IMG/VR virus record: IMGVR_UViG_3300027741_000030
Coordinates: 1 to 64,000 of that record
From: a virus
Direction: 5' to 3' (one strand)
Length of the DNA: 64,000 nucleotides
This document shows, one piece after another, positions 15,825-32,489 of this stretch (positions within the stretch are counted from its first letter, which is position 1; each line of letters starts with the position of its first letter). Made by a program: the position numbers and the translations under genes. The notes beneath the pieces are model-generated. The model made no database searches and was not told where the DNA came from. It saw only the letters and a list, made by a program, of their open reading frames with translations.

Positions 15825-16334
15825 ATGCAACCAACAGTAATAGATAATTTTATTTCAGAAGAATCGGCTAAAAAAATTGAGCTGTTCTTAAGACCAAAGG
15901 CTGAGATTAATCCAAAAGGTTTATTTAGCAAACAACTTTATCCTTTTGAGATGAGCCATGAAACTTATATTGAAATTAAATCAATTATTGAAAATATTGA
16001 AAAGCAGTTTGGATTTCCAGAAGATCAAATATCAATTAACAGAGTTTTGTATCAAGTATTACGTGAAGGTGAATTTCTTGGCTATCATGCAGATGCATAC
16101 GGCGGAGTAGAAGGTTATGGGCTTATAGGATATTCTGCATTGCTATATTTAAATAATGATTATGATGGGGGAGAAATTCTTTTCTATGATAAAGAGGGTG
16201 GCCCAACTGAGTATAAGCCAAACCCAGGTACATTAATTTATTTTAAAGGTGATGAAAACTATCCTCATTCAGTTAATAAAGTTATAAAAGGAGAAAGGGC
16301 AAATATTATCCTTTTCTTTGATGTAAAGGGATAG
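15825..16334 (+). CDS. 2OG-Fe(II) oxygenase
   Basis: HAD, YLNNDYDGGE, HSV, R. Confidence 0.85.
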   Translation: MQPTVIDNFISEESAKKIELFLRPKAEINPKGLFSKQLYPFEMSHETYIEIKSIIENIEKQFGFPEDQISINRVLYQVLREGEFLGYHADAYGGVEGYGLIGYSALLYLNNDYDGGEILFYDKEGGPTEYKPNPGTLIYFKGDENYPHSVNKVIKGERANIILFFDVKG

Positions 16335-16852: not shown

Positions 16853-17467
16853 ATGAATATACATACTAAAATAGGCAATAAAGGTTTATATGTAACAGAT
16901 TGCATAGATCAAGAGCATCTAGAGGCATTCTTTGAAATTGATGGCAAACAACATGAAAATGATATGAGAAACTACCTGGGTTACAGATTTGAATCACATA
17001 TAGGAAACAAATTTGAATCACAGATTAATAAAGATTTATTTAAATATCTAACTGAAGCATTTCGTAGTGTAATTTTTGAATACATTAATCAATCTAATAA
17101 AAATGTATCTGATTATCTATTCCCAGATCATTTTAAGACAGCACACTGGAAGCTGGACAAGCCATTAGGCCCTCATAAAGATTCAATTGAGTATGGGGCT
17201 GCATTGGAAAGTATTGGCCCAAGACCAATTATAAGCTCACTTGCTTATCTAACCGATAATTATGAAGGCGGAGAAATATATTTTCCAGATTTTGATATTT
17301 CTTTAAGACCAAGTCCTGGCTCTATAATTGTATTTGACTCTGATACTACTCATGGGGTAAATGGAGTAATAAGCGGTACAAGAAAAACAATGTCTTACAA
17401 CCTACATAGTATAAACTCTCCTCATATAGAAGATCTTAAAAAGGTTGGATATCACACAATATCCTAG
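16853..17467 (+). CDS. 2OG-Fe(II) oxygenase
   Basis: HKD, YLTDNYEGGE, HGV, R. Confidence 0.85.
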   Translation: MNIHTKIGNKGLYVTDCIDQEHLEAFFEIDGKQHENDMRNYLGYRFESHIGNKFESQINKDLFKYLTEAFRSVIFEYINQSNKNVSDYLFPDHFKTAHWKLDKPLGPHKDSIEYGAALESIGPRPIISSLAYLTDNYEGGEIYFPDFDISLRPSPGSIIVFDSDTTHGVNGVISGTRKTMSYNLHSINSPHIEDLKKVGYHTIS

Positions 17468-18571: not shown

Positions 18572-18781
18572 AGAAAATGATGATAGCTGATTTGATCAAA
18601 GCATCTGAAATGCCAGAACCTGGTGATTCAGAGGATGCAGGGATAGAGAATGATCTCAATACAGCAGGATATTCTACAGGCAAATGGTCAGATGACGATG
18701 ATATGCATCCTACAATAACTCCTCTATTTGGACCAAATAGGTAGCTAACTCCTATATCCCCCTCCCAATTATCTCCTCTTA

Positions 18782-19218
18782 TATAGCCCTTAGAAGGCTT
18801 ATATAGTGGAGTAAAGTGGAGCATAGTGGAGAATTTATACTCTAGATTCATATCAATATACTATAGTTATATCTATCTAAACATATCTATGTAATTGAGC
18901 ATACCCCATCATAAACGTAATGTCAATAGGACAATTCGGACATATATAGCAGCATATTGATCCATATTTGTCAATAAATTTTATGAGGAATTTTGATCTA
19001 TTTTGCCATATTCTCTACAGATTTGTCGACATTCTATAATGATTATATATTTAATTAGACATATTTTGTAGCATTTTCAGGGATTTTTGTCAAGCTTTCG
19101 TAAATAGAAAATTTGGCCCTAGCTTTCAGGGATTTTGATTAATTGGTCGTAAATAGAAAAATTTGCCCTCATGCTCACACACAAAAAATCCACAGGATGT
19201 GGATAACCCTGTGGATAA
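18782..19218. other. non-coding junction: 10-bp-period AGTGGAG repeats, AT-rich tract, tandem spaced motifs and DnaA boxes (candidate origin or genome-end/injection signal)
   Basis: ATAGTGGAGT-AAAGTGGAGC-ATAGTGGAGA; TGTGGATAA at 19198 and 19210; convergent strand switch. Confidence 0.5.
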
Positions 19219-19273
19219 TTTGGGCTAGATATGTTTATCTATCTAACCAGGCATTCATCTATTCATATATGCC

Positions 19274-19648
19274 TTAATTGAATGGATCTAGTTCTTCACT
19301 CCGCCATCCAAACTTATATGTGGCTTTTGGTTCTTCCCGCTTTTTAACTGTATAAGAACGAGAGGGTAACTTAAGATTATTTAAGTTGTTATCTTGCTGA
19401 TATGATTTAATACATTCATTTAATTCATTAGCAAGAGATAAACCTTCGGTTGATTCACCTCTATTTGAATATACATTATATAACTTTGCTTGCTCTGATA
19501 TAACTGACACAATCATTTCCATAACTCTGTCAATTGTATACAATGGCTGTTCCGCCAAATATCTACCAAAGACTGTCGGATTAAACCAATGGTCATCCAT
19601 TAGATTAACTAATGATTCTGCTACTTTGATTTCAGGTGACTTACTCAT
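19274..19648 (-). CDS. hypothetical phage protein
   Basis: GGAAGG RBS and TGGTATAAT upstream of MSKSPE start. Confidence 0.65.
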   Translation of the reverse strand: MSKSPEIKVAESLVNLMDDHWFNPTVFGRYLAEQPLYTIDRVMEMIVSVISEQAKLYNVYSNRGESTEGLSLANELNECIKSYQQDNNLNNLKLPSRSYTVKKREEPKATYKFGWRSEELDPFN

Positions 19649-19732
19649 ATTCCGCCTTCCGCCTAACTGTCGATTATACCAAAAATAAGAGACGGGGTCA
19701 AGGACCAACGAGCCCCAACCCCGTCCCAAGTT

Positions 19733-19879
19733 TTACTTCGCCTTGTTTGTTACTTCCTTGGTGAAGACAACGCCTGCCTTCTCAGCTTCCGCTAGAGCTA
19801 CCTTAGCTGCTCCTGAGAAACGACCACGTACACCTACTGTAATGCCTTGAGCTTTTAGATATTCACGCTTTGTTGCCAT
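19733..19879 (-). CDS. 48-aa Lsr2-type DNA-binding domain only (not in ORF track)
   Basis: MATKREYLKAQGITVGVRGRFSGAAKVALAEAEK...; RGR AT-hook-like motif; GAAAGGGG RBS; TTTACA-N17-TATAAT promoter; hairpin terminator downstream. Confidence 0.75.
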   Translation of the reverse strand: MATKREYLKAQGITVGVRGRFSGAAKVALAEAEKAGVVFTKEVTNKAK

Positions 19880-20104
19880 TTGTTTATCCCCTTTCAAGAG
19901 ATGATATTTGTTTCAATTATACAAGATATCCACGAATTTGTAAATACCCCCGTAAGACCAAATTTTGGCCCTCAATTTTGATCGCTTAGTTCCATTCTAT
20001 CTTTAATTAATTTAGCAATGATGTTGTGAGCCTCGATGTTTTCTGTTTCGCTGCCACCCCACAAAAGCTTTTGTGCTGTATTTAATTGATCATTGATGTA
20101 CTGA

Positions 20105-20425
20105 TCACTCATCCTCATCCTCGTCATCCTCCTCGTCTTCTTCGAACATTGTGTCAACAATGTAGTCACGATTAGTCATCCATTCAAGGACATCATCTTG
20201 GTGTTGTTCGGCACCATACTCCAAGGAAAACCCTTGCCCAGCCTCTACAGCCTCGCACAGGTGGTCCCACATTTGGTCCTGGGTTACTTTGGCCTTGTAT
20301 GTCTCATCTTCTAGGATGTTGTTAATAGTCGACCAGGTCCAAAGCCATACCATGGACAAGCCGAGGTCGGTGGTATCTAGAATCTCTAGACATTTATTTA
20401 GTTTATCTTTATCTTCAGGCTTCAT
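20105..20425 (-). CDS. acidic hypothetical protein with D/E tail
   Basis: ORF track; GGAG RBS. Confidence 0.65.
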   Translation of the reverse strand: MKPEDKDKLNKCLEILDTTDLGLSMVWLWTWSTINNILEDETYKAKVTQDQMWDHLCEAVEAGQGFSLEYGAEQHQDDVLEWMTNRDYIVDTMFEEDEEDDEDEDE

Positions 20426-20697
20426 AGTGTACGTTCTCCAATCGCAAATGATAGTTGATATGTTAGATTATATATATCTGCTAATGTATCAAGGGCACCT
20501 TCACATCTTGTGCGTTCCATTGAATCCATTGCTTCTTCTGATTCTTCTTCTGTCTCAATAGCGCTAGCCAATTGCTGTTCTGCAATTAGCATGAGGTTCT
20601 TTAGTTCCCCGTGCATTATATCTAATCCACTAACACCGTAGTTGACCAAACGTTGTAAATGGGGCGGGAGCCCAATGTCTTCATTATTCATTATCAT
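20422..20697 (-). CDS. acidic hypothetical protein
   Basis: AACGAAAGG leader; motif promoter at 20718. Confidence 0.65.
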   Translation of the reverse strand: MIMNNEDIGLPPHLQRLVNYGVSGLDIMHGELKNLMLIAEQQLASAIETEEESEEAMDSMERTRCEGALDTLADIYNLTYQLSFAIGERTL

Positions 20698-21010
20698 ACC
20701 TTTCGTTAGTAGAGTTCATTATATCAGTAGCCACTGACAACAAATGTTCTGTTGCTATAATTTGTCCTTTAATATTATCTATCTTAGAACCATCATAGTC
20801 TCTAGTGTTTAAGTATTCATCATAGAATTTATCATAGTCCTGGTTAAGACTAATTAGATGTATGTTCATATACTCTAGGAATTTAGAAGACTTTGTTTCT
20901 ATTTTATTATATTCCTCTTGGTCACATCTATAGCATGTAACATTTTCATCCTCCGTATAAAGCATTCCTGCCCCACAGGAGGCACACCATGATTGGTCAC
21001 GCATTCCCAT
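20684..21010 (-). CDS. zinc-ribbon hypothetical protein
   Basis: CASC...CYRC; GGGAG RBS; motif promoter at 21041. Confidence 0.65.
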   Translation of the reverse strand: MGMRDQSWCASCGAGMLYTEDENVTCYRCDQEEYNKIETKSSKFLEYMNIHLISLNQDYDKFYDEYLNTRDYDGSKIDNIKGQIIATEHLLSVATDIMNSTNERYDNE

Positions 21011-21118
21011 AATAATACTCTCCCGTTTCTCTATTGAAGTATCTTACCATAGAGCACTGACATGTAAAAATTCCAGGGACATCTGAACACTCCCAGTAAT
21101 GCTGACATTTAGCCCCCA

Positions 21119-21292
21119 TTATTCAAAATACCCTTCTGCCCATAGGCCTTGCATAAAACTGACAGCCATTTCTAAATCATTCCTTAGTTCTGTCTTATCC
21201 ATTAAATCGGACGGGGTCCTAAGATAAAAAAGCTTTGCGTCATGTACAGCATTAATCATCTTGTTTAGATCGGATTCAGTATAACCTAACAT
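21119..21292 (-). CDS. hypothetical 57-aa protein
   Basis: MLGYTESDLNKMINAV...; GAGG RBS; coupled to neighbours. Confidence 0.55.
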   Translation of the reverse strand: MLGYTESDLNKMINAVHDAKLFYLRTPSDLMDKTELRNDLEMAVSFMQGLWAEGYFE

Positions 21293-21444
21293 TATGCAAC
21301 CTCATATTCATGTAAGTAGTTTAAGACATTGTGAATAATACAATCACAATCTTCTCCGCCCATATTATCCATAAATTCTAAGTGACTAGAATTATCTTCA
21401 TAGATAATAGTAATTACTTTATCAAATAGTTCTATATTGCTCAT
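21292..21444 (-). CDS. hypothetical 50-aa acidic protein
   Basis: MSNIELFDKVITIIYEDN...CDCYIH; GGAGG RBS. Confidence 0.55.
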   Translation of the reverse strand: MSNIELFDKVITIIYEDNSSHLEFMDNMGGEDCDCIIHNVLNYLHEYEVA

Positions 21445-22217
21445 GCCTCCACCTTTTCTTTAGGCTCTAATAATACACTATGGGTCTGACATTTTGCCAT
21501 TGCCTCTTCATCTTGCCAAGAGCCTTGATTACAGTTTGAGCAGAATTCACCGCAGTCATCTTCGCAATAACTCAATGTATCGTAAGACTGGCAAGCATAG
21601 CAACGGTTCTCCCATTCAGCCAATTCTTTTACTTCACCACGGACAATCTCATATTCTCCACCCCAACCTGTCTCTTCCTCAAACTCTAATGTAAGCAGGC
21701 AGTTGGGAACAAGATTACTTAGTTTAGTTAAGATAGTTACAGCAGGTGACCAAGCAGTTTCATATTTGTAGACAAGCCAGTTGTCATCACCTTCTGATTT
21801 GTATTCAAGCAATTCTGTTTCAGGATATTCATCTTCATCACGGACAGCAACATCCCACTTAGTTCCCCAGTTAGATGTATTCCACGAATACCAATCTTTT
21901 TGAGTCTTAGCAAACTCAACAGACTTGCGGAACCAATCAGGGTCATTCTGAATATCATAGTTGCCACGAGAAGGTTGGCAGGCATATTCCTCATCAGTAA
22001 TACCGTCATCCTTATATGAGTGGATGTTATGAAAAGCAAACACAGGATTATTATATTCAACTAATTTAATTTTGGTGGGGAAACCCGAAGAACTAATATC
22101 ACCCATACCATATGTCTCTTGTGCTAATGTAAAAGGCTTATTCAATCTATCTTTAATCATATCTACCTCAGACTTAGGTCCTTGGATAGTTAATGTGTTA
22201 TATACCCAATTTGGCAT
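21441..22217 (-). CDS. DUF1281/YubB ferredoxin-like domain protein with C-terminal Cys cluster
   Basis: MPNWVYN, WYSWN..NWGTKWD, ETAWSP motifs. Confidence 0.8.
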   Translation of the reverse strand: MPNWVYNTLTIQGPKSEVDMIKDRLNKPFTLAQETYGMGDISSSGFPTKIKLVEYNNPVFAFHNIHSYKDDGITDEEYACQPSRGNYDIQNDPDWFRKSVEFAKTQKDWYSWNTSNWGTKWDVAVRDEDEYPETELLEYKSEGDDNWLVYKYETAWSPAVTILTKLSNLVPNCLLTLEFEEETGWGGEYEIVRGEVKELAEWENRCYACQSYDTLSYCEDDCGEFCSNCNQGSWQDEEAMAKCQTHSVLLEPKEKVEA

Positions 22218-22392
22218 TTTATATCCTTTCGTTGATATGGCTTAATTATACAATGGACCACTGACATTTGGGAAGAGTATATCGTGTGATACACACCACA
22301 TCCTCCAAGCTATGTGGTCAAGATCACAGAATTTTCAGGGATTTTATATTGACATCGTAAACAAAATAATATACCCTCAGTCTTTTGCGGGC

Positions 22393-22427
22393 AAAATAAA
22401 AACCCCCCAAGCTATAAGCTGGGGGGT
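22393..22427 (-). terminator. intrinsic terminator
   Basis: ACCCCCCAGC-TTATA-GCTTGGGGGGT followed by TTTTATTTT on - strand. Confidence 0.8.
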
Positions 22428-22543
22428 ATGAATATGGCTGCTGATTTCCAACGAAAGAAATAAACCGCTTTACTTAGCGCCTGGCCCGCAGACTAGTTAG
22501 ACGCACCATTTCATTTCTATATTAAAACCAGGACCAAGGTCCT
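22393..22543 (-). ncRNA. candidate ~150-nt trans-acting sRNA antisense to the shared early-gene RBS
   Basis: TGGTATAAT promoter (22558-22550); 5' hairpin AGGAC-CUUG-GUCCU; seed UUUAUUUCUUUCGUUGG; C6/G6 terminator plus U tract; only tiny ORFs. Confidence 0.6.
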
Positions 22544-22550
22544 ACATTAA

Positions 22551-22919
22551 TTATACCATACTTAGTTGACTGGAATACTTATCCACGAATGCCTCAAGGC
22601 TCGTACTAAATACAACTGTCTGCAGGTCTTCTTCCATTAGAGTAAACGTTTTGTTTTTCCAATCGATAATAGGTACCTTGTGCTCATTGTCTGATAACTC
22701 ATTAACTGTAATGCCCCAACCTGTTTCGCTGGACCACTCATCCCCAATTAAATTAGATATACATATACGTGTTGCATATGCTTCGTCATTCCATCGAGGC
22801 TTTGCTTTAAGAACACAGTCTGCTAAATTCTCTAGCATTCTGTGGCCCGCCCAATGACCGTATAGAAATACAACATTCTCATTGGATTGTCTAAATCCAA
22901 AGTTTGCTCTGTCTCCCAT
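22551..22919 (-). CDS. hypothetical phage protein (MGDRAN... type)
   Basis: ORF track; AAGGCGG RBS. Confidence 0.7.
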   Translation of the reverse strand: MGDRANFGFRQSNENVVFLYGHWAGHRMLENLADCVLKAKPRWNDEAYATRICISNLIGDEWSSETGWGITVNELSDNEHKVPIIDWKNKTFTLMEEDLQTVVFSTSLEAFVDKYSSQLSMV

Positions 22920-22920
22920 T

Positions 22921-23112
22921 TTATTCCGCCTTTGTTAGTTGTTGTTCCTGCTCGTTGTTGAGCAATTGTACCATCTCATGGGCCCAGTCCACAAGTGGCC
23001 CGCCATGGTGAGCTTTATGATGTCCGCAAAAATAAAGAGACATCTCATCTTTCTTTGCTTCCCACATAGCTTGCGCCGCACATTGGTCACACTTAAGCCA
23101 TTCAGACATCAT
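22921..23112 (-). CDS. small zinc-finger protein (CxxC...CxHH)
   Basis: CDQCAAQA...FCGHH. Confidence 0.65.
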   Translation of the reverse strand: MMSEWLKCDQCAAQAMWEAKKDEMSLYFCGHHKAHHGGPLVDWAHEMVQLLNNEQEQQLTKAE

Positions 23113-23263
23113 AGGTTTCCACCTTCAATCATTTCAGAAAGACGATCAAGGATCCAAGAATCAATGTCAGCGATATCAATCTCTGCTAACTTCTCCATAA
23201 TTTCTTCACGAGCAAACTTATACCCGTCTTGAAAACCATCTTTATAGTCTGACATTTTATCTC

Positions 23264-23467
23264 CTAGTATCCTGTCGCTTCTTTGTCTGACCAGTATGAT
23301 TCTTTTAAATTATACTTATCACGAATGCGACTTACTTTCTCAATACTACCAGTTCCAATGTTGAAAGTCAATGGTGGCATAAACTCAGGGTCAAGTCCCA
23401 TAATTTGTGCATCCCAATAAGCCATCTCAAGAGATAGCCTATCGGGAGCAGTTAACTCAAAGTACAT
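23264..23467 (-). CDS. hypothetical protein
   Basis: ORF track; GAGG RBS. Confidence 0.6.
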   Translation of the reverse strand: MYFELTAPDRLSLEMAYWDAQIMGLDPEFMPPLTFNIGTGSIEKVSRIRDKYNLKESYWSDKEATGY

Positions 23468-24099
23468 TATGCCTCACGCACATTACATACTTCGGTGTCA
23501 TTGATTTCAATGTTACCGTTATTTGAATCGGCATAAAGAGCATCGTAGACTTCTGACTCAAGGTCTAACTCATAATCATTCTCAAGAATGTTATATGTAT
23601 ATGTTCCGCTAACTTCAAGAGTTGCAGTAAACAGAACTTCCTTGATTAGTTCAATGCCAAGCGCTTCGGCAATTGCACGGAGTGTATCTTTATCCTCTGA
23701 ATCTTCATATGCTTCACAGATAATTTCTTTAGCCGCATCAATGTTAGATAATAGAGTAGTTACACGCTTCTGTGATTGACGTCCATTGTGCAAATCCCAT
23801 TCAAGAGATGCGACTTTATCAGTTGCATATTCTGCATCTGAGTAACCACGGATTACTTTGTAGGTAACCAATAAGTTAGCATTGTACGTATCAGGAACTG
23901 TTACTGCAGGTGTTGTTGTCTCTTCCATTTTTTCCTCTTTCGTTTGGTTTGAAGGTGAAATTGTAGCATCTTCCACTGACAAATAGGCAGTGTTTCCACC
24001 GCATTCGCATGTGACATTAATCACATCCCTGGTTGATGTATATTCAATTAATGCATCACATGTATGGCATACATGTGTATATTTATTCCAAGTTGTCAT
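23467..24099 (-). CDS. hypothetical protein with N-terminal zinc ribbon; second in-frame start at 23928
   Basis: Leaderless ATG 6 nt after -10 at 24106; internal promoter 23960 and AACGAAAGAGG RBS before MEETT. Confidence 0.65.
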   Translation of the reverse strand: MTTWNKYTHVCHTCDALIEYTSTRDVINVTCECGGNTAYLSVEDATISPSNQTKEEKMEETTTPAVTVPDTYNANLLVTYKVIRGYSDAEYATDKVASLEWDLHNGRQSQKRVTTLLSNIDAAKEIICEAYEDSEDKDTLRAIAEALGIELIKEVLFTATLEVSGTYTYNILENDYELDLESEVYDALYADSNNGNIEINDTEVCNVREA

Positions 24100-24203
24100 G
24101 CGAGTATTGTACACTAGGCCACTGACATTTACAAGGATATTCCAGGGATTTTTTTTGTGATTCGTAACACAAAAAATTTGCCTTTGCCTGTGCGGGCATT
24201 TTG

Positions 24204-24277
24204 CGACCCATATCGGACTTGAACCGACGGCCTCTACCGTGACAGGGTAGCGCTCTAACCAACTGAGCTAATGGATC
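24204..24277 (-). tRNA. tRNA-Asp(GTC)
   Basis: Acceptor GATCCAT/ATGGGTC; CTACC-CTGTCAC-GGTAG; TTCAAGT T loop. Confidence 0.93.
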
Positions 24278-24288
24278 AAGAAAAAATG

Positions 24289-24317
24289 TGAGCAGTTTTA
24301 AATCTTGCTCAGGATTT
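24289..24317 (-). ncRNA. small H-type pseudoknot motif (copy 1)
   Basis: AAAUC-CUGAGCAA-GAUUU-AAAAC-UGCUCA. Confidence 0.5.
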
Positions 24318-24324
24318 TTTTTAA

Positions 24325-25329
24325 TTAAAACGCAGAAACTAATTTCTTAATTTTATTTTTTTCTGCGGTAAGAACTGGGTCAAACCCTGATGCACCAGCC
24401 ATAAGAGTTTCGCCATTGCCACGTCCTGAACGATAATAATCTAAACGCTCAGTTAGTGCATTGAACGCACCCCACTTTGTGCCTTTGATATTAGCGTTAG
24501 TTGGTGAATTATGATAAAGGTCATCAAGAAGAACGACTTTGTTTTCCCACTTCTTGATTGCGCCCTTAGCATCTTTTTCAGGCTTAGGATAGATTGTCTG
24601 AATCAACTTAGAGAATTCAGCATCGGTGATTGATTGAGAATAAAGGGCTTGAGCCTCTTTTTCAAATTCATCAAAGTATCCGAGAGCAAGACCGAGAGTC
24701 TCACGAGCAACAGCGATGCGACCTTCAACAGATTGGGTGTGACGAATTTTGAAAGATTGCTTTGCATTACGCATTGCAAGATTCAATGTGTTTTGGCAAA
24801 CTACACGAACAGGTGTGACGGCTGCTTGAACAGCAACAGAACCATCGTGTGATGTCCAGACAATGAGATAAAGTTTTGTCTCATCGTTAGCGCCTTGTGG
24901 GTCTAATACCATTGTGCGGGGAATATCGACAGTGCCGAAAACAACTTTACCCTTTTTCAATGAGCCAGCAGATTCCCAACGGCAATCAGCATTAGCATCG
25001 TGAATTGCATCAGCGAATGCAAATAATTCTTCATTCTGCACAGGCTTGTAACGCTTGCCGACAGTTGCGAGAACATCTACGCCCTTATTAAATGGGTTAT
25101 CACGAATGACAAGAGATGCGGTAGAAACATCATTCCAAGATTCTGGAATGTGCTCAGTGATTGGAGATAAACGAACATTCCAATTTGCTAACTTTGCCTC
25201 TTCAAGCATTGTAGCGGTTGTAACTTCCTCATCTTGTGTAAAGATTCGGTTAGCGAGATTGTGCCAAGCAGGAGCGCCACGAAGCGCAAATGCAACTTCG
25301 CCATTTTCCATTTCTAGATTATGAGCCAT
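24325..25329 (-). CDS. DUF932 / TIGR03299 phage-plasmid protein
   Basis: MAH...PAWH.L, Y..VQN, TSHDGS, TPVRVVCQNTL, IRHT, GTKWGAFNA.TE. Confidence 0.88.
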   Translation of the reverse strand: MAHNLEMENGEVAFALRGAPAWHNLANRIFTQDEEVTTATMLEEAKLANWNVRLSPITEHIPESWNDVSTASLVIRDNPFNKGVDVLATVGKRYKPVQNEELFAFADAIHDANADCRWESAGSLKKGKVVFGTVDIPRTMVLDPQGANDETKLYLIVWTSHDGSVAVQAAVTPVRVVCQNTLNLAMRNAKQSFKIRHTQSVEGRIAVARETLGLALGYFDEFEKEAQALYSQSITDAEFSKLIQTIYPKPEKDAKGAIKKWENKVVLLDDLYHNSPTNANIKGTKWGAFNALTERLDYYRSGRGNGETLMAGASGFDPVLTAEKNKIKKLVSAF

Positions 25330-25555
25330 TTTTATTTCCTTTCGTTTGATTGTTGATGCAAGTATAACAGGTGGCACTGACATTGTCTAGATTAGTTAGT
25401 CATTTGTCCGAATTGATCCGTGTGATTAATTTCACAAAATTTTCAGGGTTTTCCACAACTGTGCGTAAACCTGTGGATAACCCCATACCTGTGCGGGCTT
25501 CCCGCACCATCAACTGGAGCTAGCAGCGCTAACCCCAGTTGATCGATGTGGTTGT

Positions 25556-25777
25556 TTATGAATTTATTTTTGCAACAGTGTCTTCATTTAAAAACATTGC
25601 TGTTGTTTTCTTTTTCTTTTGCATGTCAAATACGTAAGCATTTACTTTTCCGCTAAAACGGCGGATGTTAGAGAACACCAACTCTGTTAAGTGCTCTTTA
25701 TCTACACCTTGCTCTGAATAAATAGTTACATCATTTGCTTTGTTTGCGTCATAGATTTCAACTCTAAAGCGAGCCAT
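25556..25777 (-). CDS. hypothetical protein
   Basis: ORF track; AAAGG RBS. Confidence 0.65.
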   Translation of the reverse strand: MARFRVEIYDANKANDVTIYSEQGVDKEHLTELVFSNIRRFSGKVNAYVFDMQKKKKTTAMFLNEDTVAKINS

Positions 25778-25809
25778 TGTATTACCTTTGTTAGTAGTTT
25801 CCCGAAGAA

Positions 25810-25836
25810 GAGCAGTTTGGCGACATACTCAGGTCG
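25810..25836 (-). ncRNA. small H-type pseudoknot motif (copy 2)
   Basis: CGAC-CUGAGUAU-GUCG-CCAAAC-UGCUC. Confidence 0.5.
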
Positions 25837-25845
25837 TTTATTTAT

Positions 25846-26262
25846 TTAGAGATACTTAGCAATTTGCTTCATTGTAGAAGCATTTACTGTTTCCTCATCT
25901 GTCATCTTGAGAATTGTGAGAGCATTTGTGATGTCCTCTTTCATTTCACGATAACTGTGCTGATGAATTGTCTCAAAATCTTTTTGAGGTTCAGCAGGAA
26001 AGTTTCCTTCCTTTGTGATGATGTCAAAATCAACATTGAGAGTGTTGTTCCAAGAACGATAGTTTGTGCGAAGGTTCTCAGCCTTTGAGAAGTTGGCAAT
26101 AGCCCACTTACCGATTTCCTTGCGCCACGCTTCTACCGCTTTGGTGTGCTTTGCTTCTTTTGCTTCTTGTGTTGCGTAATTAGTTTCTAACTCAGCAAGG
26201 CGAGCCTCTAGTGCCTTGATTACTTTTGGTGTTGCCACCTTTACTGTTATTGCTCTACTCAT
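25846..26262 (-). CDS. hypothetical phage protein
   Basis: CCAACGAAAGG leader; motif promoter 26294. Confidence 0.75.
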   Translation of the reverse strand: MSRAITVKVATPKVIKALEARLAELETNYATQEAKEAKHTKAVEAWRKEIGKWAIANFSKAENLRTNYRSWNNTLNVDFDIITKEGNFPAEPQKDFETIHQHSYREMKEDITNALTILKMTDEETVNASTMKQIAKYL

Positions 26263-26394
26263 TTGTTTCCTTTCGTTGGTTGGTTGTTAGAGTATTGTAT
26301 CAGACGGGTCTGACATTTCCCCGAAGGGAGAGAGTTTTTACTTACGACATTGGGCTAGAACACTCTCTGAAACTGCCCCTGTTTCGCTAGTTGA

Positions 26395-26571
26395 TTAGAC
26401 TAGGCTTGCGTTGCTAACTGTTGTCCAACGAGTTTCCTTTGTTGGCATTTCTAGCAACACTCTCACCGAGCCAGATGAGTTAGGAATAATCTCTTTGATT
26501 ACTCCTGTCTTTTTTGACTTTAAGGTTGTGAATAAATCGCCAACCTTGTATGTGTATCCATTTACTGTCAT
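26395..26571 (-). CDS. small SH3/KOW-like hypothetical protein
   Basis: YKVGDLF..G.I.EI; GAAAGG RBS; motif promoter 26598. Confidence 0.6.
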   Translation of the reverse strand: MTVNGYTYKVGDLFTTLKSKKTGVIKEIIPNSSGSVRVLLEMPTKETRWTTVSNASLV

Positions 26572-26664
26572 TTTGCTTCCTTTCTGTTTAGGGTTGTAGT
26601 ATAGCATTGGGGTCTGACATTAGTCTAGCCCTATCTCATTATTTGAGAAAGTTATTGTGTGACC

Positions 26665-26931
26665 TTAGTCACTTTCAGGTAGCCAAGCGTCTAAGTGGTG
26701 AGCATCAACTATTGCAGACGCAGGGCAGGAAGTCTGTCCTCGCCAAGTGATACCTTCAGGTAAATTGATCTCACGGCTGTATTCCTCATCATAGAACGCA
26801 TCAATAGCATCTATGCAAGGTTGCACCATTGATACGGGAACGGGTGGGTAATGATTACCTTGTAAGTGATAAGCAAGTCCTGCCTCTAGTGATAGTTCAT
26901 CTGCAAGTCCTAGTGCTGTTGTGTATCCCAT
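26665..26931 (-). CDS. hypothetical phage protein
   Basis: HLQGNHYPPVP...HHLDAW. Confidence 0.7.
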   Translation of the reverse strand: MGYTTALGLADELSLEAGLAYHLQGNHYPPVPVSMVQPCIDAIDAFYDEEYSREINLPEGITWRGQTSCPASAIVDAHHLDAWLPESD

Positions 26932-27137
26932 TATGCCACCACCTTTAGAATTGCGTATGAACCGCCTGCATTAATTTCATCTATTGCAGGCTGAATTGCT
27001 GGTACGATTAATTCTTTTAGCATTCCTTCTAGCATAGCAATTTGCTCTTTTGCTTCTAGTGCAAGAAAACGCTGTGAGATTGGATGTGTTTCGTCAAACT
27101 CTGTTACGAATTTGAGAGAGTGTTCGACTTTGGTCAT
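26931..27137 (-). CDS. hypothetical protein
   Basis: CAACGAAAGG leader; motif promoter 27167. Confidence 0.65.
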   Translation of the reverse strand: MTKVEHSLKFVTEFDETHPISQRFLALEAKEQIAMLEGMLKELIVPAIQPAIDEINAGGSYAILKVVA

Positions 27138-27422
27138 TTGTTACCTTTCGTTGTTGGAATAAGAGTATTGTACCGCAGGCTACTGACATTACCTAATCTA
27201 TTATCGGCGTGTCGCAGCTTTTGTGAGATTAATCACAAAATTCCAGGGGTTGTGGATAAGTATCGTAAGCCTGTGGATAAACCCTCACCTATGCGGGCGA
27301 GCTGCATATTTATGCGTTACTCTGCATTTTTATTTTTATGTTTGATCTTGCGATTATATTTTTTTTTATTGCGAACAGGTTGCGCCGCATTACTGCGACG
27401 CAATTCCTGAATGCGTTTAACT

Positions 27423-27614
27423 TTATCTTGAAGAGAAGTTAGGAACATGATATCCACTCGCTTCATGAAATTTATTTACATCAAAGTTAGGATTTTCATT
27501 TGCAAACATAACCGCAAAATCATTTACTGTTTTAGAAAAAACAGCGGGATGAATTTTATCGCTCATGAATTTAAGAATTTCTGCAGTTGCTTCAAAGTGC
27601 TTTCGTGTCATCAT
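27423..27614 (-). CDS. hypothetical phage protein (MTRKHF...NPNFD..KF type)
   Basis: ORF track. Confidence 0.65.
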   Translation of the reverse strand: MMTRKHFEATAEILKFMSDKIHPAVFSKTVNDFAVMFANENPNFDVNKFHEASGYHVPNFSSR

Positions 27615-27811
27615 TTTGCGGATACCAATCCAATTCTATTAAAGTTTTTAGTATACATTTTGCCAGTTGGCATTTCTAAATTATAAGTTGCTAATTCTTT
27701 AGCGAACCCAACATCATAACATTTTGCAAATGCTTCAAATGCTTGCAAAGCATCTGCAAATTGGTGAGTAAATTCTAAATTTCCGTCATAGTAAGTAAAT
27801 AGTTTATACAT
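27611..27811 (-). CDS. hypothetical protein
   Basis: GAGG RBS before MYKLF. Confidence 0.6.
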   Translation of the reverse strand: MYKLFTYYDGNLEFTHQFADALQAFEAFAKCYDVGFAKELATYNLEMPTGKMYTKNFNRIGLVSAK

Positions 27812-28110
27812 TAGCAACCTCTTTCCATTCGAAACAATAAGAGTCAGAAACAAAAGGATTTTTCTTTACAACCTCATCAAATAAAGATAACGCTTGATTT
27901 TCGTCCTCTGCGTCTATGTCTAGCCAAACGCCAAATGTGTATTTATTCATTAGTCATTTTCTCCATTCAAAAATAGTGAGCCGTCATTTACACAATCGCA
28001 AGGCTCTACATCATAATTTCTTTCGTCTCCGAAAAAAACAAATCCTGCGCCACCGCATTCATCGCAATTCGCTGCGATTATTTCTATGTATTCTTTTATT
28101 TTGCTCATTA

Positions 28111-28326
28111 TTATTCACCAACCTTTACTGCGATTGTGCGATAAGTTCTGCGACCCCAAGTGTTAGAGCCACTATTAGGCGCAACCTCGACAAGATAGGT
28201 ATCGCAACCCTCATACCAAATTGGCTGAGGGTGTTTTTCCGCTGAAATAATTTCACCGATTAGAGTAGATGAGCGATAGGTTTTTCCTACAAGTAGGTTT
28301 TCGATTGTGTAGATGTTTGCTGACAT
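28111..28326 (-). CDS. hypothetical protein
   Basis: CAACGAAAGG leader; motif promoter 28358. Confidence 0.65.
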   Translation of the reverse strand: MSANIYTIENLLVGKTYRSSTLIGEIISAEKHPQPIWYEGCDTYLVEVAPNSGSNTWGRRTYRTIAVKVGE

Positions 28327-29190
28327 TTTGTCCGCCTTTCGTTGTTGATATACGGATATTATAGCGGATAGGACTGACAAAGTGTTAATTTTGCAAGGGT
28401 TTGTCTCAATATGTGGAGCGTGGGCTATGTGATAAACATCACATAAAAATGTCCGATTTGTCTGTCAAACCGACACGCCGTAAATTTTCAGGGTTTTTAT
28501 AACAGTTCCGTAACGACACGCCCGACCCCGTGCCTATGCGGGCCAGCTTGACATTGTCAAGCCGACACGCCGTTTATTCTTTGTTATCTTGCTCACATAC
28601 GCATCTAGTGTAAGCACCCGCATTAAGACGATCACATTTAGGGCAGGTATAAAATCCGCTAGGGTTAGCCATTAGTTTAACCCGTTTTCTTTTATGTCTT
28701 TGATTACGGCAATTAGTAGCGGGATAGTTAAGCCCGCTAGTAGTAATTGGACGGCGGTAGTTAGTAGGCGATTAGTAGTCATTACTTATTCTTCTTTCTC
28801 TTATAAATCTTATAGGCGATTACCACTAGGGCGGTTAGTGTTATTAGTTTCCAATCTAGTGCGACATAGAACCAATCGCTATCTAGACATATACCATAGT
28901 CATTTATTTCTAATGTCATTACATCTCAACCTTTCGCATATGTGCTACAACATTTTTAGAAACCTTTTGTAGGTCTGCTACGACCTTATTCATTTCATCG
29001 GCGCTAGTTGCCTTAAAGTCAACGCCTAGTAGTTGTGCGCCGTCCCATATTGAGTAAGTGATAGTCATTTATAGTGCTCCTTCTTGTAGTAGTGCTATCT
29101 CGATGTCTAGTTGTATTGTATCGGGTAGGTCTGACAAATCAACCCAACCCGCTCCTTCGTTATCCATTATGAACGCTTTTACATATCCCA

Positions 29191-29373
29191 TTACGCTACC
29201 TCTGACATCTCTGCTAGTAGTGCGTCTACTTGCTCATCTGTTAGTTCATCTTCTAATTCTTCATCTTCTACATCTACCTCTTCATCTAGGTAAGCGTATT
29301 GGTCGGCTACATCTTCCTGAATAGTGTCCCACTTAGAGAGGCTATTAGTGCGTGTGTTGTATGCGTATGACAT
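29191..29373 (-). CDS. highly acidic 60-aa protein
   Basis: D/E-rich; AACGAAAG leader. Confidence 0.7.
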   Translation of the reverse strand: MSYAYNTRTNSLSKWDTIQEDVADQYAYLDEEVDVEDEELEDELTDEQVDALLAEMSEVA

Positions 29374-29407
29374 TTATTTCTTCTTTCGTTAGTTGGTTAT
29401 TTGGTTG

Positions 29408-29461
29408 AGAGCGATTATTTGCTAGGCTCACCTTTCGGATTATTTGCTAGGCTCACGCTCT
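29408..29461 (-). repeat. 19-bp direct repeat pair enclosed in a hairpin (structured 5' leader)
   Basis: GATTATTTGCTAGGCTCAC at 29413 and 29438; flanked by AGAGCG/CGCTCT. Confidence 0.8.
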
Positions 29462-29548
29462 AATTCTTTATTTATTTGTATGTCGTAAGACTATCACGAC
29501 CTACTGACATTTAGCCTAATTTAGGGCTAGTGTCGTGTGTGAGTTACC

Positions 29549-29656
29549 TCACATCTCCGCTATATTAGCCTCGTGATAGGCGAGAGTAATTTCCTCGCCG
29601 AATTCGGATACTAGGTCGTTATAGACCTCGTCTTGATAGTTAAGATAATCGTTCAT
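29549..29656 (-). CDS. 35-aa acidic microprotein, first gene of the inverted block
   Basis: MNDYLNYQDEVYNDLVSEFGEEITLAYHEANIAEM; GAAAGG RBS; motif promoter 29706. Confidence 0.55.
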   Translation of the reverse strand: MNDYLNYQDEVYNDLVSEFGEEITLAYHEANIAEM

Positions 29657-29926
29657 TAGATTACCGCCTTTCTTAGTAAGACTTTCTTACTTTCTTTATA
29701 CCTTAAGCATAGCAAGGGGGACTGACATTTAGACCCCTATTCTCGGGCGTGTCTAAATAAATCTTAGAATAATCGTGTGATCTCCACCACAATCACGCTC
29801 ATTATGGGCGGTCTATCCATTTTGTCCGATTTTGATTTATATGTGTATCGTGCAAATTAAAAATTTATTAACATTTTTTGAAATCTGAACGGCTGGTCAA
29901 CTAAAAATAAATGGTAAACTTATAAT

Positions 29927-30460
29927 ATGATAAATTATTTAACTGAAGATAAGCGTGTTTGGGAAATAGAAAATTTTCTTTCTGAAGAAGAGCTATCAAG
30001 ATTTGATTATCATATAAAAAAAACAGAATGGGTAACTCAAGAAAAATGGGAGAATGTTACATATAAAAATAACACTTCAATTTTTCCAGATGTTAAATTT
30101 ATAATAGACAGAACTGCTGATGCAACTGATCATAAATATTCATGGAGCAGCATGGGCATTATAATGAGAATCCAACCTGGTATGTATTTAAGTCCGCATG
30201 TTGATAATTACAATAATCCTGATTCTGATTTAACAAAAAATTGGCTCTCGGCACATATTTATCTAAATGATAATTTTGATGGAGGCGAACTTTATTATGC
30301 AAATTTAAATATTAAATACAAGCCTAAACGTGGTTCCATAGTCTTTCATCCTGGGTTTGAAGATATTTATATGCATGGCGTGAAAAAAGTTGTTGGTTCA
30401 GATAGATACGCAATAGGATTAGTTGGAAAAAGCTTGACATCAAAAATACATTTAGTATAA
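29927..30460 (+). CDS. 2OG-Fe(II) oxygenase
   Basis: HVD, YLNDNFDGGE, HGV, RY. Confidence 0.85.
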   Translation: MINYLTEDKRVWEIENFLSEEELSRFDYHIKKTEWVTQEKWENVTYKNNTSIFPDVKFIIDRTADATDHKYSWSSMGIIMRIQPGMYLSPHVDNYNNPDSDLTKNWLSAHIYLNDNFDGGELYYANLNIKYKPKRGSIVFHPGFEDIYMHGVKKVVGSDRYAIGLVGKSLTSKIHLV

Positions 30461-31246: not shown

Positions 31247-31918
31247 ATGGGAATGCAAGATATTAAATTTCAAGAAACAACAGGAAAAACAATTAAGGTT
31301 ATAGCTCCTATGGGTTCTGGATGTGTTTTGTTTTCTAAATTCTTAAATCATATTTGTGAAAATGTTAATATAAAATCTGGATACCATGAAACAGATGAGT
31401 GGTTTGGTAGAAATAATCCAACTATGATGGACGAAGAAAATCTTTTTGTTTATATTTTAAGAGATCCAATTGATTCAATAACTGAAAGCGTAAAAGTTTT
31501 AATGAATTTTAAAGATGATTATGCAACTAGATTTCAAGATCCTCATCACCTATTACAATCAATTAATATTGCAAAACCAAAATGGCATGATATGTTTATG
31601 AAATCAAAAGAAAAAGAACAAGAAAATAGTTTTAAAATTATTTACGAATCAATGTTTATAAATTCAGATAAAATGATTAAACAATTTGTAAAATTTTTTG
31701 ATTTAACTTTAAATGAAAATTATTTTTCTTCAATTACTGCAAAAGATGTTTATTCAAAAATGGAAAAAACAGGATACTCATTTTGGATACCAGATAATCA
31801 AATTTCTAAATATACTATAGTTGATGATGCAGTTCGTAATGATGAAGAAATAAAAGAAATGCAAAAACAATATCTTGAGTATAAAAAAGAGATAGAGTTT
31901 TATGATTATAAATTCTAA
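31247..31918 (+). CDS. sulfotransferase-like P-loop protein
   Basis: APMGSG; ILRDPIDS; IIYE. Confidence 0.6.
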   Translation: MGMQDIKFQETTGKTIKVIAPMGSGCVLFSKFLNHICENVNIKSGYHETDEWFGRNNPTMMDEENLFVYILRDPIDSITESVKVLMNFKDDYATRFQDPHHLLQSINIAKPKWHDMFMKSKEKEQENSFKIIYESMFINSDKMIKQFVKFFDLTLNENYFSSITAKDVYSKMEKTGYSFWIPDNQISKYTIVDDAVRNDEEIKEMQKQYLEYKKEIEFYDYKF

Positions 31919-32489
31919 TCCTGGATCAGGAAACACTTTTTGCAGCGTATTATTAGAAGAAGCTTTGGGTTATTGGGTTGAAACAAAACATCAGCCACAC
32001 ATATTAAATGAAAAAATAAATCAAATTACTTTATTTAGAAATCCATATGATTCAGTATTGTCTTCTTTAGAAAGACATTTTCAAGATTTGCATCCAGACT
32101 TAAAACCCTTTGATTTAAATAATCAAGACGAAGTAAAAAATAATGTAAAACAATATGTTAGATTGTATAATATATATTTAGACGATTATCAAAAAGACTA
32201 TATCTATCCTGTAACTTATGAGCATTTAAGAAACAACCCAATGATATTTGTAAAATCTATTGCAAATTTTTTTGATTTAAAAATAATTAATGAAGATATT
32301 AATGAAGATAAAATTGTAAAAAAAATAATTAATACTCAAAATTTTTTTGAACATAGAAAAAAAAGATTAGCGCCAGTAAAAGAAAGAGAAGCTTTAATAA
32401 AAATTTTAAAATTAGATAATTCTTTAAAGCAACTTTATGAAAGATATTGTCAACATAAAGAAATTTTGCAAAATGTCCATAACAATTAA
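31902..32489 (+). CDS. sulfotransferase-like P-loop protein
   Basis: SNPGSGNT; FRNPYDSVLS; VTYEHL..NP. Confidence 0.65.
   Translation: MIINSNPGSGNTFCSVLLEEALGYWVETKHQPHILNEKINQITLFRNPYDSVLSSLERHFQDLHPDLKPFDLNNQDEVKNNVKQYVRLYNIYLDDYQKDYIYPVTYEHLRNNPMIFVKSIANFFDLKIINEDINEDKIVKKIINTQNFFEHRKKRLAPVKEREALIKILKLDNSLKQLYERYCQHKEILQNVHNN

Follow-up and report, generated by a model that had tools for sequence, protein, structure and literature searches.

What is the 11-kb block of small leftward genes in IMG/VR virus record IMGVR_UViG_3300027741_000030, and which regulators read the many sites that it carries? The record has a length of 115,655 bp and a G+C content of 35.6%; it is flagged as linear, with a CheckV completeness of 100%. 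We analyzed its first 64 kb (64,000 nucleotides), referred to here as the window. The block occupies positions 18782..29830 on the minus strand. Its genes run from about 29.7 to 19.27 kb in at least 16 short leftward transcription units, and rightward genes flank it on both sides. It holds ~34 small genes, 14 PafBC-type promoters, two canonical promoters, one tRNA and one small-RNA unit. On balance we favor the view that the block is an early module of the host-takeover type, homologous to a terminal repeat, which would use promoters of the host PafBC class together with a CRP-type operator in ~60% of the related contexts.

The pattern TGTC[AG]G-N9-11-TAnnnT occurs at 16 sites in the whole genome (115.6 kb). 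Fourteen of these are located between 20,718 and 29,727; every one is a minus-strand site with a spacing of N10. The window contains 15 sites versus 1.0 expected from dinucleotide-preserving shuffles of the 64-kb sequence, which also provided the expectations for the palindromes and the TTATCCACA words given below; no shuffle equalled the observed number. The promoters are built as hybrids, in which an aaTGTCAGtg box at -26 is combined with an extended -10 (TGnTAyAAT). There is no conserved -35, and the hexamers 17 nt upstream of the -10 vary from promoter to promoter. Nine of the 14 promoters are intergenic and five are embedded in the 3' part of the preceding gene. Downstream of every strict -26/-10 site, at a distance of 40-100 nt, is a start codon. 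The usual leader, (C)AACGAAAGG, is a Shine-Dalgarno sequence with the ATG at about +24, counted from a start predicted as the seventh base after the -10. The related word AACGAAAG has 8 of its 12 genomic copies on the minus strand inside the block.

This architecture was compared with the published PafBC motif, tGTCgg(N10)tA(N3)T, which comprises a -26 element and a canonical -10 and lacks a -35; its GTC triplet is contacted by PafB and is conserved across actinobacteria (PMC8635444). PafBC is activated by single-stranded DNA and joins RNA polymerase-SigA already present on such a promoter, not naked DNA (PMC11804915). The RecA-NDp type of promoter, to which this motif belongs, reaches beyond mycobacteria, across Actinobacteria (PMC8223512). 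The block promoters match the published consensus in the GTC core and the N10 spacing. Like PafBC-dependent RecA-NDp promoters (PMC8635444, PMC11804915), they have TGTC(A/G)G at -26 with 10 nt to TAnnnT, an invariant GTC, no conserved -35 and frequently TGTCAGTG. They differ in that the phage has 14-19 of them per genome, gathered in one block where they drive small ORFan genes; the phage also prefers A over G at position 5 and adds the TG of the extended -10 as well as CRP-like sites.

These CRP-like sites are the second element of the host type. Perfect TGTGA-N6-TCACA palindromes occur five times in the genome, all within 24,010-29,553 and hence inside the block. The window has 5 versus 0.07 expected, a number that again no shuffle equalled. 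Among the relatives we found 83 distinct 16-mers, in which the arms are fixed and the centers are free and A/T-rich. The arms fit the actinobacterial CRP/GlxR consensus TGTGANNTANNTCACA, which is recognized by GlxR of Corynebacterium (PMC4254451). In the relatives the centers of the sites fall at -64.5, -69.5, -74.5 and -84.5 relative to the predicted start. A perfect site is present in 326 of 867 promoter contexts and one with at most one mismatch in 534 of 867 (~60%); shuffled controls gave 0. Class I CRP/GlxR promoters (PMC4254451) also have perfect arms with an A/T-rich center; they place the site upstream of the core in 10-bp steps, with which the centers at -64.5, -74.5 and -84.5 agree and the one at -69.5 does not. 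In contrast to these, the phage sites are joined to a PafBC-type core, and their centers rest on predicted starts.

An initial annotation of this DNA had described an 11-kb inverted module with small genes and a concentration of host-factor sites, including PafBC-type promoters and CRP boxes. The coordinates were right, and the block is a distinct module whose class of regulatory sites was not found elsewhere in the genome; both labels agree with the published motifs, the first in sequence and spacing and the second in the consensus of the palindrome.

Next we analyzed the conservation of these elements. A search with DUF932, a protein family encoded in the block, yielded 271 related IMG/VR stretches, and the comparisons use 80 of these 271 loci (1.32 Mb). 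These loci hold 1,152 matches to the promoter pattern on the strand of the genes versus 7 on the opposite one, and the extended -10 carries TG. Each of five complete sister genomes has 14-19 sites, all within one block of 9.5-11.3 kb. A position table of promoters selected by the pattern is circular at the pattern positions; hence an alignment anchored on the ATG was used. This unbiased set consists of the 230 nt upstream of the DUF932 start codon, whatever their content, and comprises 62 distinct sequences with a mean identity of 69% and a minimum of 50%. The strict promoter is present in 62 of 62. All of them also keep the CRP-like arms, the word TTATCCACA and the AACGAAAGG leader. Conservation peaks at GCCC, GGGGTTATCCACA, TTAC, CCTG, TTTTGTGA..ATCACA, CGGAC, AATGTCAGTG, TGnTATAC and AACGAAAGG, with variable sequence in between. 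The conserved block at the promoter is AATGTCAGTG, and there is no -35.

The peaks outside the promoter belong to a longer upstream cassette. Five aligned cassettes have the same order of elements: a hairpin, tRNA or terminator, GCCCGCAyAGG, in some cases TTATCCACA, TTACG, CCCTGRAA and the CRP-like palindrome, followed by an optional CGACAC box, TGTCAG-N10-TAnnnT, AACGAAAGG and the ATG. The distance is 30 bp from GCCCGCAyAGG to TTACG, 20 bp from there to AAyCCCTGRAA and ~11 bp from there to the palindrome. Every cassette is preceded by a hairpin, tRNA-Asp or a terminator. The recurrent order of modules that had been proposed is thus seen in these five cassettes, but the full cassette stands at only 5 of the 14 promoters. 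The compound signatures TTACG-N15-CCCTG (5 of 5 genome-wide), GCCCGCA-N23-TTACG (4 of 4) and CGACACGCC (4 of 4) are confined to the block. In the related loci the gene strand has 163 copies of TTACG-N15-CCCTG and the opposite strand none.

All five cassettes lie on the minus strand. The one at 28380..28543 has GCCCGCATAGG, TTACG, CCCTGAAA and CGACACGCC boxes and a CRP-like palindrome at 28428-28443, and the one at 27189..27298 has two TTATCCACA words (27251-27259 and 27272-27280) and a palindrome at 27222-27237. The cassette of the DUF932 gene (25383..25498) contains GCCCGCACAGG, TTATCCACA at 25472-25480, TTACG, CCCTGAAA, a palindrome at 25421-25436 and TCGGACAA. A short cassette at 24128..24197 consists of GCCCGCACAGG, TTACG and CCCTGGAA with a CRP-like site that has one mismatch; in the cassette at 22267..22392, GCCCGCA, TTACG and CCCTGAAA are accompanied by two CRP-like sites with one mismatch each. 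A (T)CGGACA(A) box was observed between the CRP-like site and the promoter at 25404-25411, 29822-29829 and 28450 (minus strand). The same box is present as CCGGACA in nearly all intergenic regions of the terminal repeat of Streptomyces phage Paradiddles, and from these sequences we take CGGACA to be a conserved box across the phage group. A sigma-54 or extracytoplasmic function (ECF)-type reading of TTACG...CCCTGRAA was considered and rejected by eye, as the defining spacings are missing.

The 9-mer TTATCCACA is a DnaA-box word. Five of its six genomic copies are in the block (19,198-27,280, minus strand), and the window contains 6 versus 0.85 expected, which no shuffle equalled. Together with the counts for promoters (14 of 16) and palindromes (5 of 5), this genome-wide test of motif enrichment did not yield an even spread of the sites. 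In the relatives the segment that precedes TTACG reads TTATCCACA in the majority of cases (64 of 127). An ordered cluster of DnaA boxes in untranslated DNA was not found in the block, where each cassette has one or two words; the pair at 19,188-19,216 forms a terminator hairpin. DnaA sites, as annotated, are therefore real as enriched perfect words, but they are a segment of a larger conserved cassette and not free-standing arrays. The proposed concentration of WhiA-type GACAC boxes did not hold. GACAC is not enriched in the block, with 12 copies versus 10.3 expected from 108 in the genome, and its recurrent place near -50 is part of the longer word CGACACGCC.

Sites of the host type are present in many copies, in a region that replication would amplify, and their main function might be to sequester host PafBC, CRP and DnaA as decoys, as had also been suggested. 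Their arrangement is that of operators. The strict -26/-10 sites all face a gene start 40-100 nt downstream, the CRP-like sites stand at discrete distances from the promoters, and all sites are strictly strand-specific. Furthermore, PafBC binds only RNA polymerase-SigA already on a promoter and not naked DNA (PMC11804915), and the DnaA words number merely one or two per cassette. Because of the fixed geometry, the strand specificity and the fact that PafBC does not bind naked DNA, titration is disfavored, and we consider it very improbable.

The function of the block also depends on the phage that carries it. The order of its open reading frames (ORFs) is collinear with that of Paradiddles (Stanwilliamsviridae), at 52-66% protein identity: 66% for the ribonucleotide reductase (RNR), 60% for the large terminase, 56% for DnaE, 55% for the major capsid protein, 53% for the portal and 52% each for WhiB and DUF932. 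Among GenBank phages, the relatives closest in large terminase come almost all from Streptomyces (127 records), Gordonia (51) and Rhodococcus (13), none with more than 64% identity. Because of the WhiB-family protein (encoded at 1840-2256), the collinearity with Paradiddles and the hosts of the terminase relatives, we assign the phage to the uncultured actinophages related to Stanwilliamsviridae. The low G+C content would point to a host among the freshwater low-GC actinobacteria. When the block was compared with GenBank phages by megablast, no match resulted, and the distant mode of the search recovered the DUF932 segment and the tRNA only. The group itself is very abundant and microdiverse in freshwater and lakes. 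For the RecA-like protein of the phage (record positions 98235-99239), the clusters at ≥90% identity number more than 120 in the database and come from many metagenomes; only sister-phage clusters were among the matches. The WhiB protein is 78% identical to a WhiB on the 23-kb contig JBBALJ010000051.1, which is binned in a 'Bacteroidia' metagenome-assembled genome and is probably a mis-binned sister-phage contig.

The collinearity bears on the proposal, made in the initial annotation, that the block is a terminal repeat. Paradiddles has an exact direct terminal repeat of 10,778 bp with 21 small leftward genes and an HNH gene, and cluster BE1 phages have repeats of ~11 kb (PMC5764925). When Paradiddles is joined at the repeat, its order is right-arm genes (WhiB region), repeat, gp023 and RNR; the matching order in the record is 1.6-5.9 kb, the block, 36.9 kb and 38.2 kb, with sizes of 11.0 kb for the block and 10.8 kb for the repeat. 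The Paradiddles repeat contains a DUF932 gene (gp003) and also an Lsr2-like gene. From collinearity, size, layout and the shared DUF932 and Lsr2-like genes it follows that the block is the homologue of the relatives' terminal repeat. This evidence for a positional homologue of their 10.8-kb direct terminal repeat is real but indirect.

The likeness to the direct terminal repeat of cluster BE Streptomyces phages (PMC5764925) extends to several features. It is collinear, lies between the right-arm and the first unique genes and has a similar size (10.8 versus 11.0 kb). It comprises ~20-35 small leftward genes, of which each gene or pair has a cassette of terminator, boxes, promoter and leader, and it shares the DUF932 and Lsr2-like genes, the (C)AACGAAAGG/ATCGAAAGG leader and the CGGACA boxes. 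The repeat differs in its ordinary -35/-10 promoters, without a PafBC-type array, CRP palindromes or TTATCCACA words. It is also physically repeated, whereas the lake-phage block is known from single-copy assemblies.

The last difference leaves room for an alternative, in which the genome is circularly permuted and packaged by the headful mechanism, with the block as an early region in its interior that is linked to the repeat by ancestry alone. All assemblies have one copy of the block. Overlaps of 55-120 bp close the complete sister contigs into circles, in which the block is internal, at arbitrary positions, and these assembly overlaps are what IMG/VR flags as 'direct terminal repeats' in the sister genomes. 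There is no cluster of contig ends at the right border of the block. These observations weigh against a physical repeat. However, a long repeat that had collapsed during assembly would give an identical picture, and the single internal copy fits both states equally well. Phages with ~11-kb direct terminal repeats have large terminases that share 60-64% identity with that of the lake phage (PMC5764925), and the block agrees with such a repeat in size (11.0 versus 10.8 kb), position and layout. Contig ends of the relatives are ~3-fold enriched at the left boundary, between 18.33 and 19.06 kb. We regard a permuted genome as quite possible in this one respect, yet somewhat doubtful. In the best explanation, metagenome assembly would have collapsed a terminally repeated block to one internal copy. 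The guess of a terminal repeat thus stands as positional homology to the repeat of collinear relatives, and not as a repeat visible in the assemblies, where the block is single.

The contig-end cluster was rejected as a called terminus; at 3-fold and at the left boundary only, it is too weak. The left boundary itself (18745..19273) is untranslated and rich in repeats, with two tandem promoter-less cassette cores (19075-19169), three copies of TATAGTGGAG and three of TAACTCCTCT. The three TATAGTGGAG units, 10 bp each, are at 18802-18831. This region could be a terminus, an origin or a stretch that is hard to assemble; for the origin reading, repeats and DnaA words are present.

Although the block is homologous to the repeat of the cultured phages by position, its promoters are not of the same class. 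The intergenic regions of the Paradiddles repeat consist of a terminator, CCGGACA boxes, a promoter (TAGACA-N17-TAGACT), a ATCGAAAGG or CAACGAAAGG leader and the ATG. Paradiddles, Coruscant and Francob as well as the Rhodococcus phages Peregrin and Dorin have 0-3 matches to the PafBC-type pattern per genome, equal to the reversed-pattern control, and CRP palindromes and TTATCCACA words were not found in these cultured relatives. Since the cultured relatives use ordinary -35/-10 promoters, the sequences indicate that only the freshwater clade has the PafBC-type array and that the promoter class was replaced there. Within the phage studied here, canonical promoters are present outside the block, with perfect 12/12 sigma-70-type promoters on either side of it (17,533 and 30,434). 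The presence of canonical promoters in the remaining genome means that the promoter class of the block is a distinct choice. Inside the block, two distal genes on the minus strand have canonical promoters: the Lsr2-like gene a sigma-70-type promoter at 19916..19944 (TTTACA-17-TATAAT) and the last gene one at 19673..19701 (TTGACC-17-TGgTATAAT).

The canonical promoters of the two distal genes and those elsewhere, including the perfect 12/12 ones, would also permit a two-tier programme. In this scenario a factor made by the phage or carried in the virion reads the -26 box and/or the cassette and redirects host RNA polymerase, like T4 MotA/AsiA. The block would then be of a delayed-early or middle class, switched on by the products of the canonically promoted genes. 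The cassette boxes are conserved without a known host reader, most block proteins are ORFans, and the phage carries a WhiB-family protein; the WhiB family is known to contact region 4 of SigA. On the other hand, WYL, Crp-type helix-turn-helix (HTH), DnaA C-terminal, sigma-70 and PafB/C-type HTH domains were not found in the phage proteins. The WhiB protein and the sole small HTH gene, a weak match in a 47-amino-acid protein, are common to Paradiddles, which has no such promoters. Moreover, core sequence and spacing agree exactly with those of the host promoter class. We find a phage factor unlikely, if still worth considering.

Several further points weigh against reading by host PafBC and CRP. 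The commonest box of the phage is TGTCAG versus the mycobacterial consensus tGTCgg, and the reading would presuppose a host with pafBC and crp whose own recA promoter has TGTCAG. An extended -10 can function without an activator, and the -26 box could be read by something else, an ORFan protein of the phage included. In the cultured relatives ordinary promoters suffice, and a module of this kind does not need PafBC dependence. Some CRP-like sites are centered at -69.5 and depart from the main series by half a helical turn. To our knowledge GCCCGCAyAGG, TTACG, CCCTGRAA and CGGACA match no regulator that has been described.

Under the reading that we favor, host PafBC, CRP and perhaps DnaA would bind the sites in the block, which would be expressed early. 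Single-stranded DNA arising from the entry of the phage DNA, from the breakdown of host DNA or from damage would activate host PafBC. The activated protein would adapt RNA polymerase-SigA ('sigma adaptation'), so that the block promoters fire, and host CRP-cAMP may modulate them. Expression from the ordinary promoters of the small RNA and the two distal genes would not depend on PafBC.

The small-RNA candidate is at 22395..22558 on the minus strand. It has its own extended -10 promoter (TGgTATAAT), the seed UUUAUUUCUUUCGUUGG and a C6/G6 terminator at 22402-22427. The unit has no ORF, and its fold is modestly better than that of shuffles (z = -2.2). Among the 80 loci, 51 have conserved the unit without any change in its seed. 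This seed is the complement of the shared leaders AACGAAAG(G)AAAUAAA, and a function of the small RNA as an off-switch is plausible. In whole-RNA duplex energies only 2 of the 34 block start regions are below the 5th percentile of 90 control genes. Rfam at a permissive threshold returned, for the block, the tRNA and a chance miRNA-like hairpin, and no family for the small RNA. The initial annotation had assumed an sRNA timer; the conserved unit with its anti-leader seed agrees with this idea, but the duplex energies did not single out the block leaders, and the timer role is conjecture.

All of these elements could be joined in one scheme. A multi-input cassette in a terminal repeat would be gated by PafBC and single-stranded DNA and tuned by CRP-cAMP and perhaps DnaA, or the entering DNA end would itself supply the triggering single-stranded DNA; the anti-leader small RNA would then shut the block off. 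If this were true, the launch of the takeover would be set by the DNA-damage, energy and replication state of the cell, and translation of the whole leader class would be shut off by the small RNA. As a whole we consider this scheme doubtful.

By analogy, SPO1's module for host takeover and the left terminal repeat of T5 appear to be the closest functional analogues of the block. The SPO1 module is described as a 12.4-kb terminal region with ~24-26 small early genes (PMC6873191, citing Stewart et al. 1998). As far as this secondary account goes, it resembles the block as a terminal region of many short operons with strong promoters and ribosome-binding sites, and it differs in the canonical sigma-A early promoters of a Bacillus myovirus, with no sequence relationship. 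The T5 repeat (bioRxiv 10.1101/866236) is likewise ~10 kb long; it contains small genes of the pre-early class, DnaA-box words and untranslated DNA that is rich in repeats. T5 has eight DnaA boxes in one ordered untranslated array, whereas the lake phage has single or paired words in cassettes plus one terminator hairpin. T5 is also the model for a first-injected region; two-step injection is not known for the lake-phage group.

Takeover modules in terminal repeats (SPO1, T5) and PafBC 'sigma adaptation' are each already known. In our literature search we found no paper on a phage with a whole early module on the host PafBC promoter class. New here are the homology to a terminal repeat with replacement of the promoter class relative to cultured phages, the discrete spacing of the CRP-like sites, the unbiased test of conservation and three negative outcomes, on GACAC, decoys and RNA targeting. 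If PafBC reads these promoters, abundant freshwater phages would start their infection by using the single-stranded DNA alarm of the host as an activator. The logic of LexA and the SOS response is relief of a repressor, unlike activation by PafBC. The cultured Streptomyces and Rhodococcus relatives with ordinary promoters offer a natural comparison and a laboratory route. For those who assemble such phages, the link to the terminal repeat means that the virion DNA probably contains two copies of an 11-kb stretch.

The individual promoters can be located as follows, all on the minus strand. The first one, at 29706..29727 (TGTCAG-N10-TATGCT), has a CRP-like site with one mismatch at about -84 and GACAC at -52. 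The next, at 29488..29509, has a perfect CRP-like site at -64.5 and a 5' untranslated region of ~100 nt. In this region (29400-29470) two direct 18-nt repeats (TGAGCCTAGCAAATAATC) are located inside a GAGCG/CGCTC hairpin, and they may form a structured leader. The AACGAAAGG leader follows the promoters at 28358..28379, 27167..27188 and 26294..26315; a further promoter is at 26598..26619. The promoters at 29115..29136, 21470..21491, 21041..21062 and 20718..20739 are embedded in coding sequence, the last one with a AACGAAAGG leader.

The promoter that is kept in 62 of 62 distinct orthologous upstream regions (25361..25382) serves the DUF932 gene (24325..25329, minus strand). Its product has 334 amino acids, counted from the ATG after the leader, and is 52% identical to Paradiddles gp003, which is inside the Paradiddles terminal repeat. 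The tRNA-Asp (GTC) at 24203..24277 (minus strand) is between this gene and the next cassette. The following promoter (24106..24127, minus strand) is predicted to give a leaderless mRNA, with an ATG at 24099, 7 nt past the -10, that encodes a 210-amino-acid zinc-ribbon-like protein. Inside this gene is another promoter (23960..23981, minus strand), with a perfect CRP-like palindrome at 24010-24025 in the coding sequence, a AACGAAAG leader and an in-frame ATG at 23928; it may produce a short isoform of 153 amino acids.

The remaining landmarks are in the left half of the block, again on the minus strand. The promoter at 22245..22266, with a AACGAAAGG leader, serves a DUF1281_C/Api92-like gene of 258 amino acids (21441-22217). 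The Lsr2-like gene (19733..19897, 54 amino acids) matches PHROG 6269 with an E value of 1.7e-7, and the last gene (19274-19648) encodes an ORFan of 124 amino acids. The block is closed by the terminator hairpin at 19188..19216, which has two TTATCCACA words in stem and loop. Apart from the DUF932, DUF1281_C/Api92-like, DUF7455 and Lsr2-like families, the block proteins are ORFans. On the plus strand, the flanks contain genes for 2-oxoglutarate (2OG)-Fe(II) oxygenases at 15825-16334, 16853-17467 and 29927-30460, and the right flank also has two sulfotransferase-like genes at 31247-31918 and 31902-32489.

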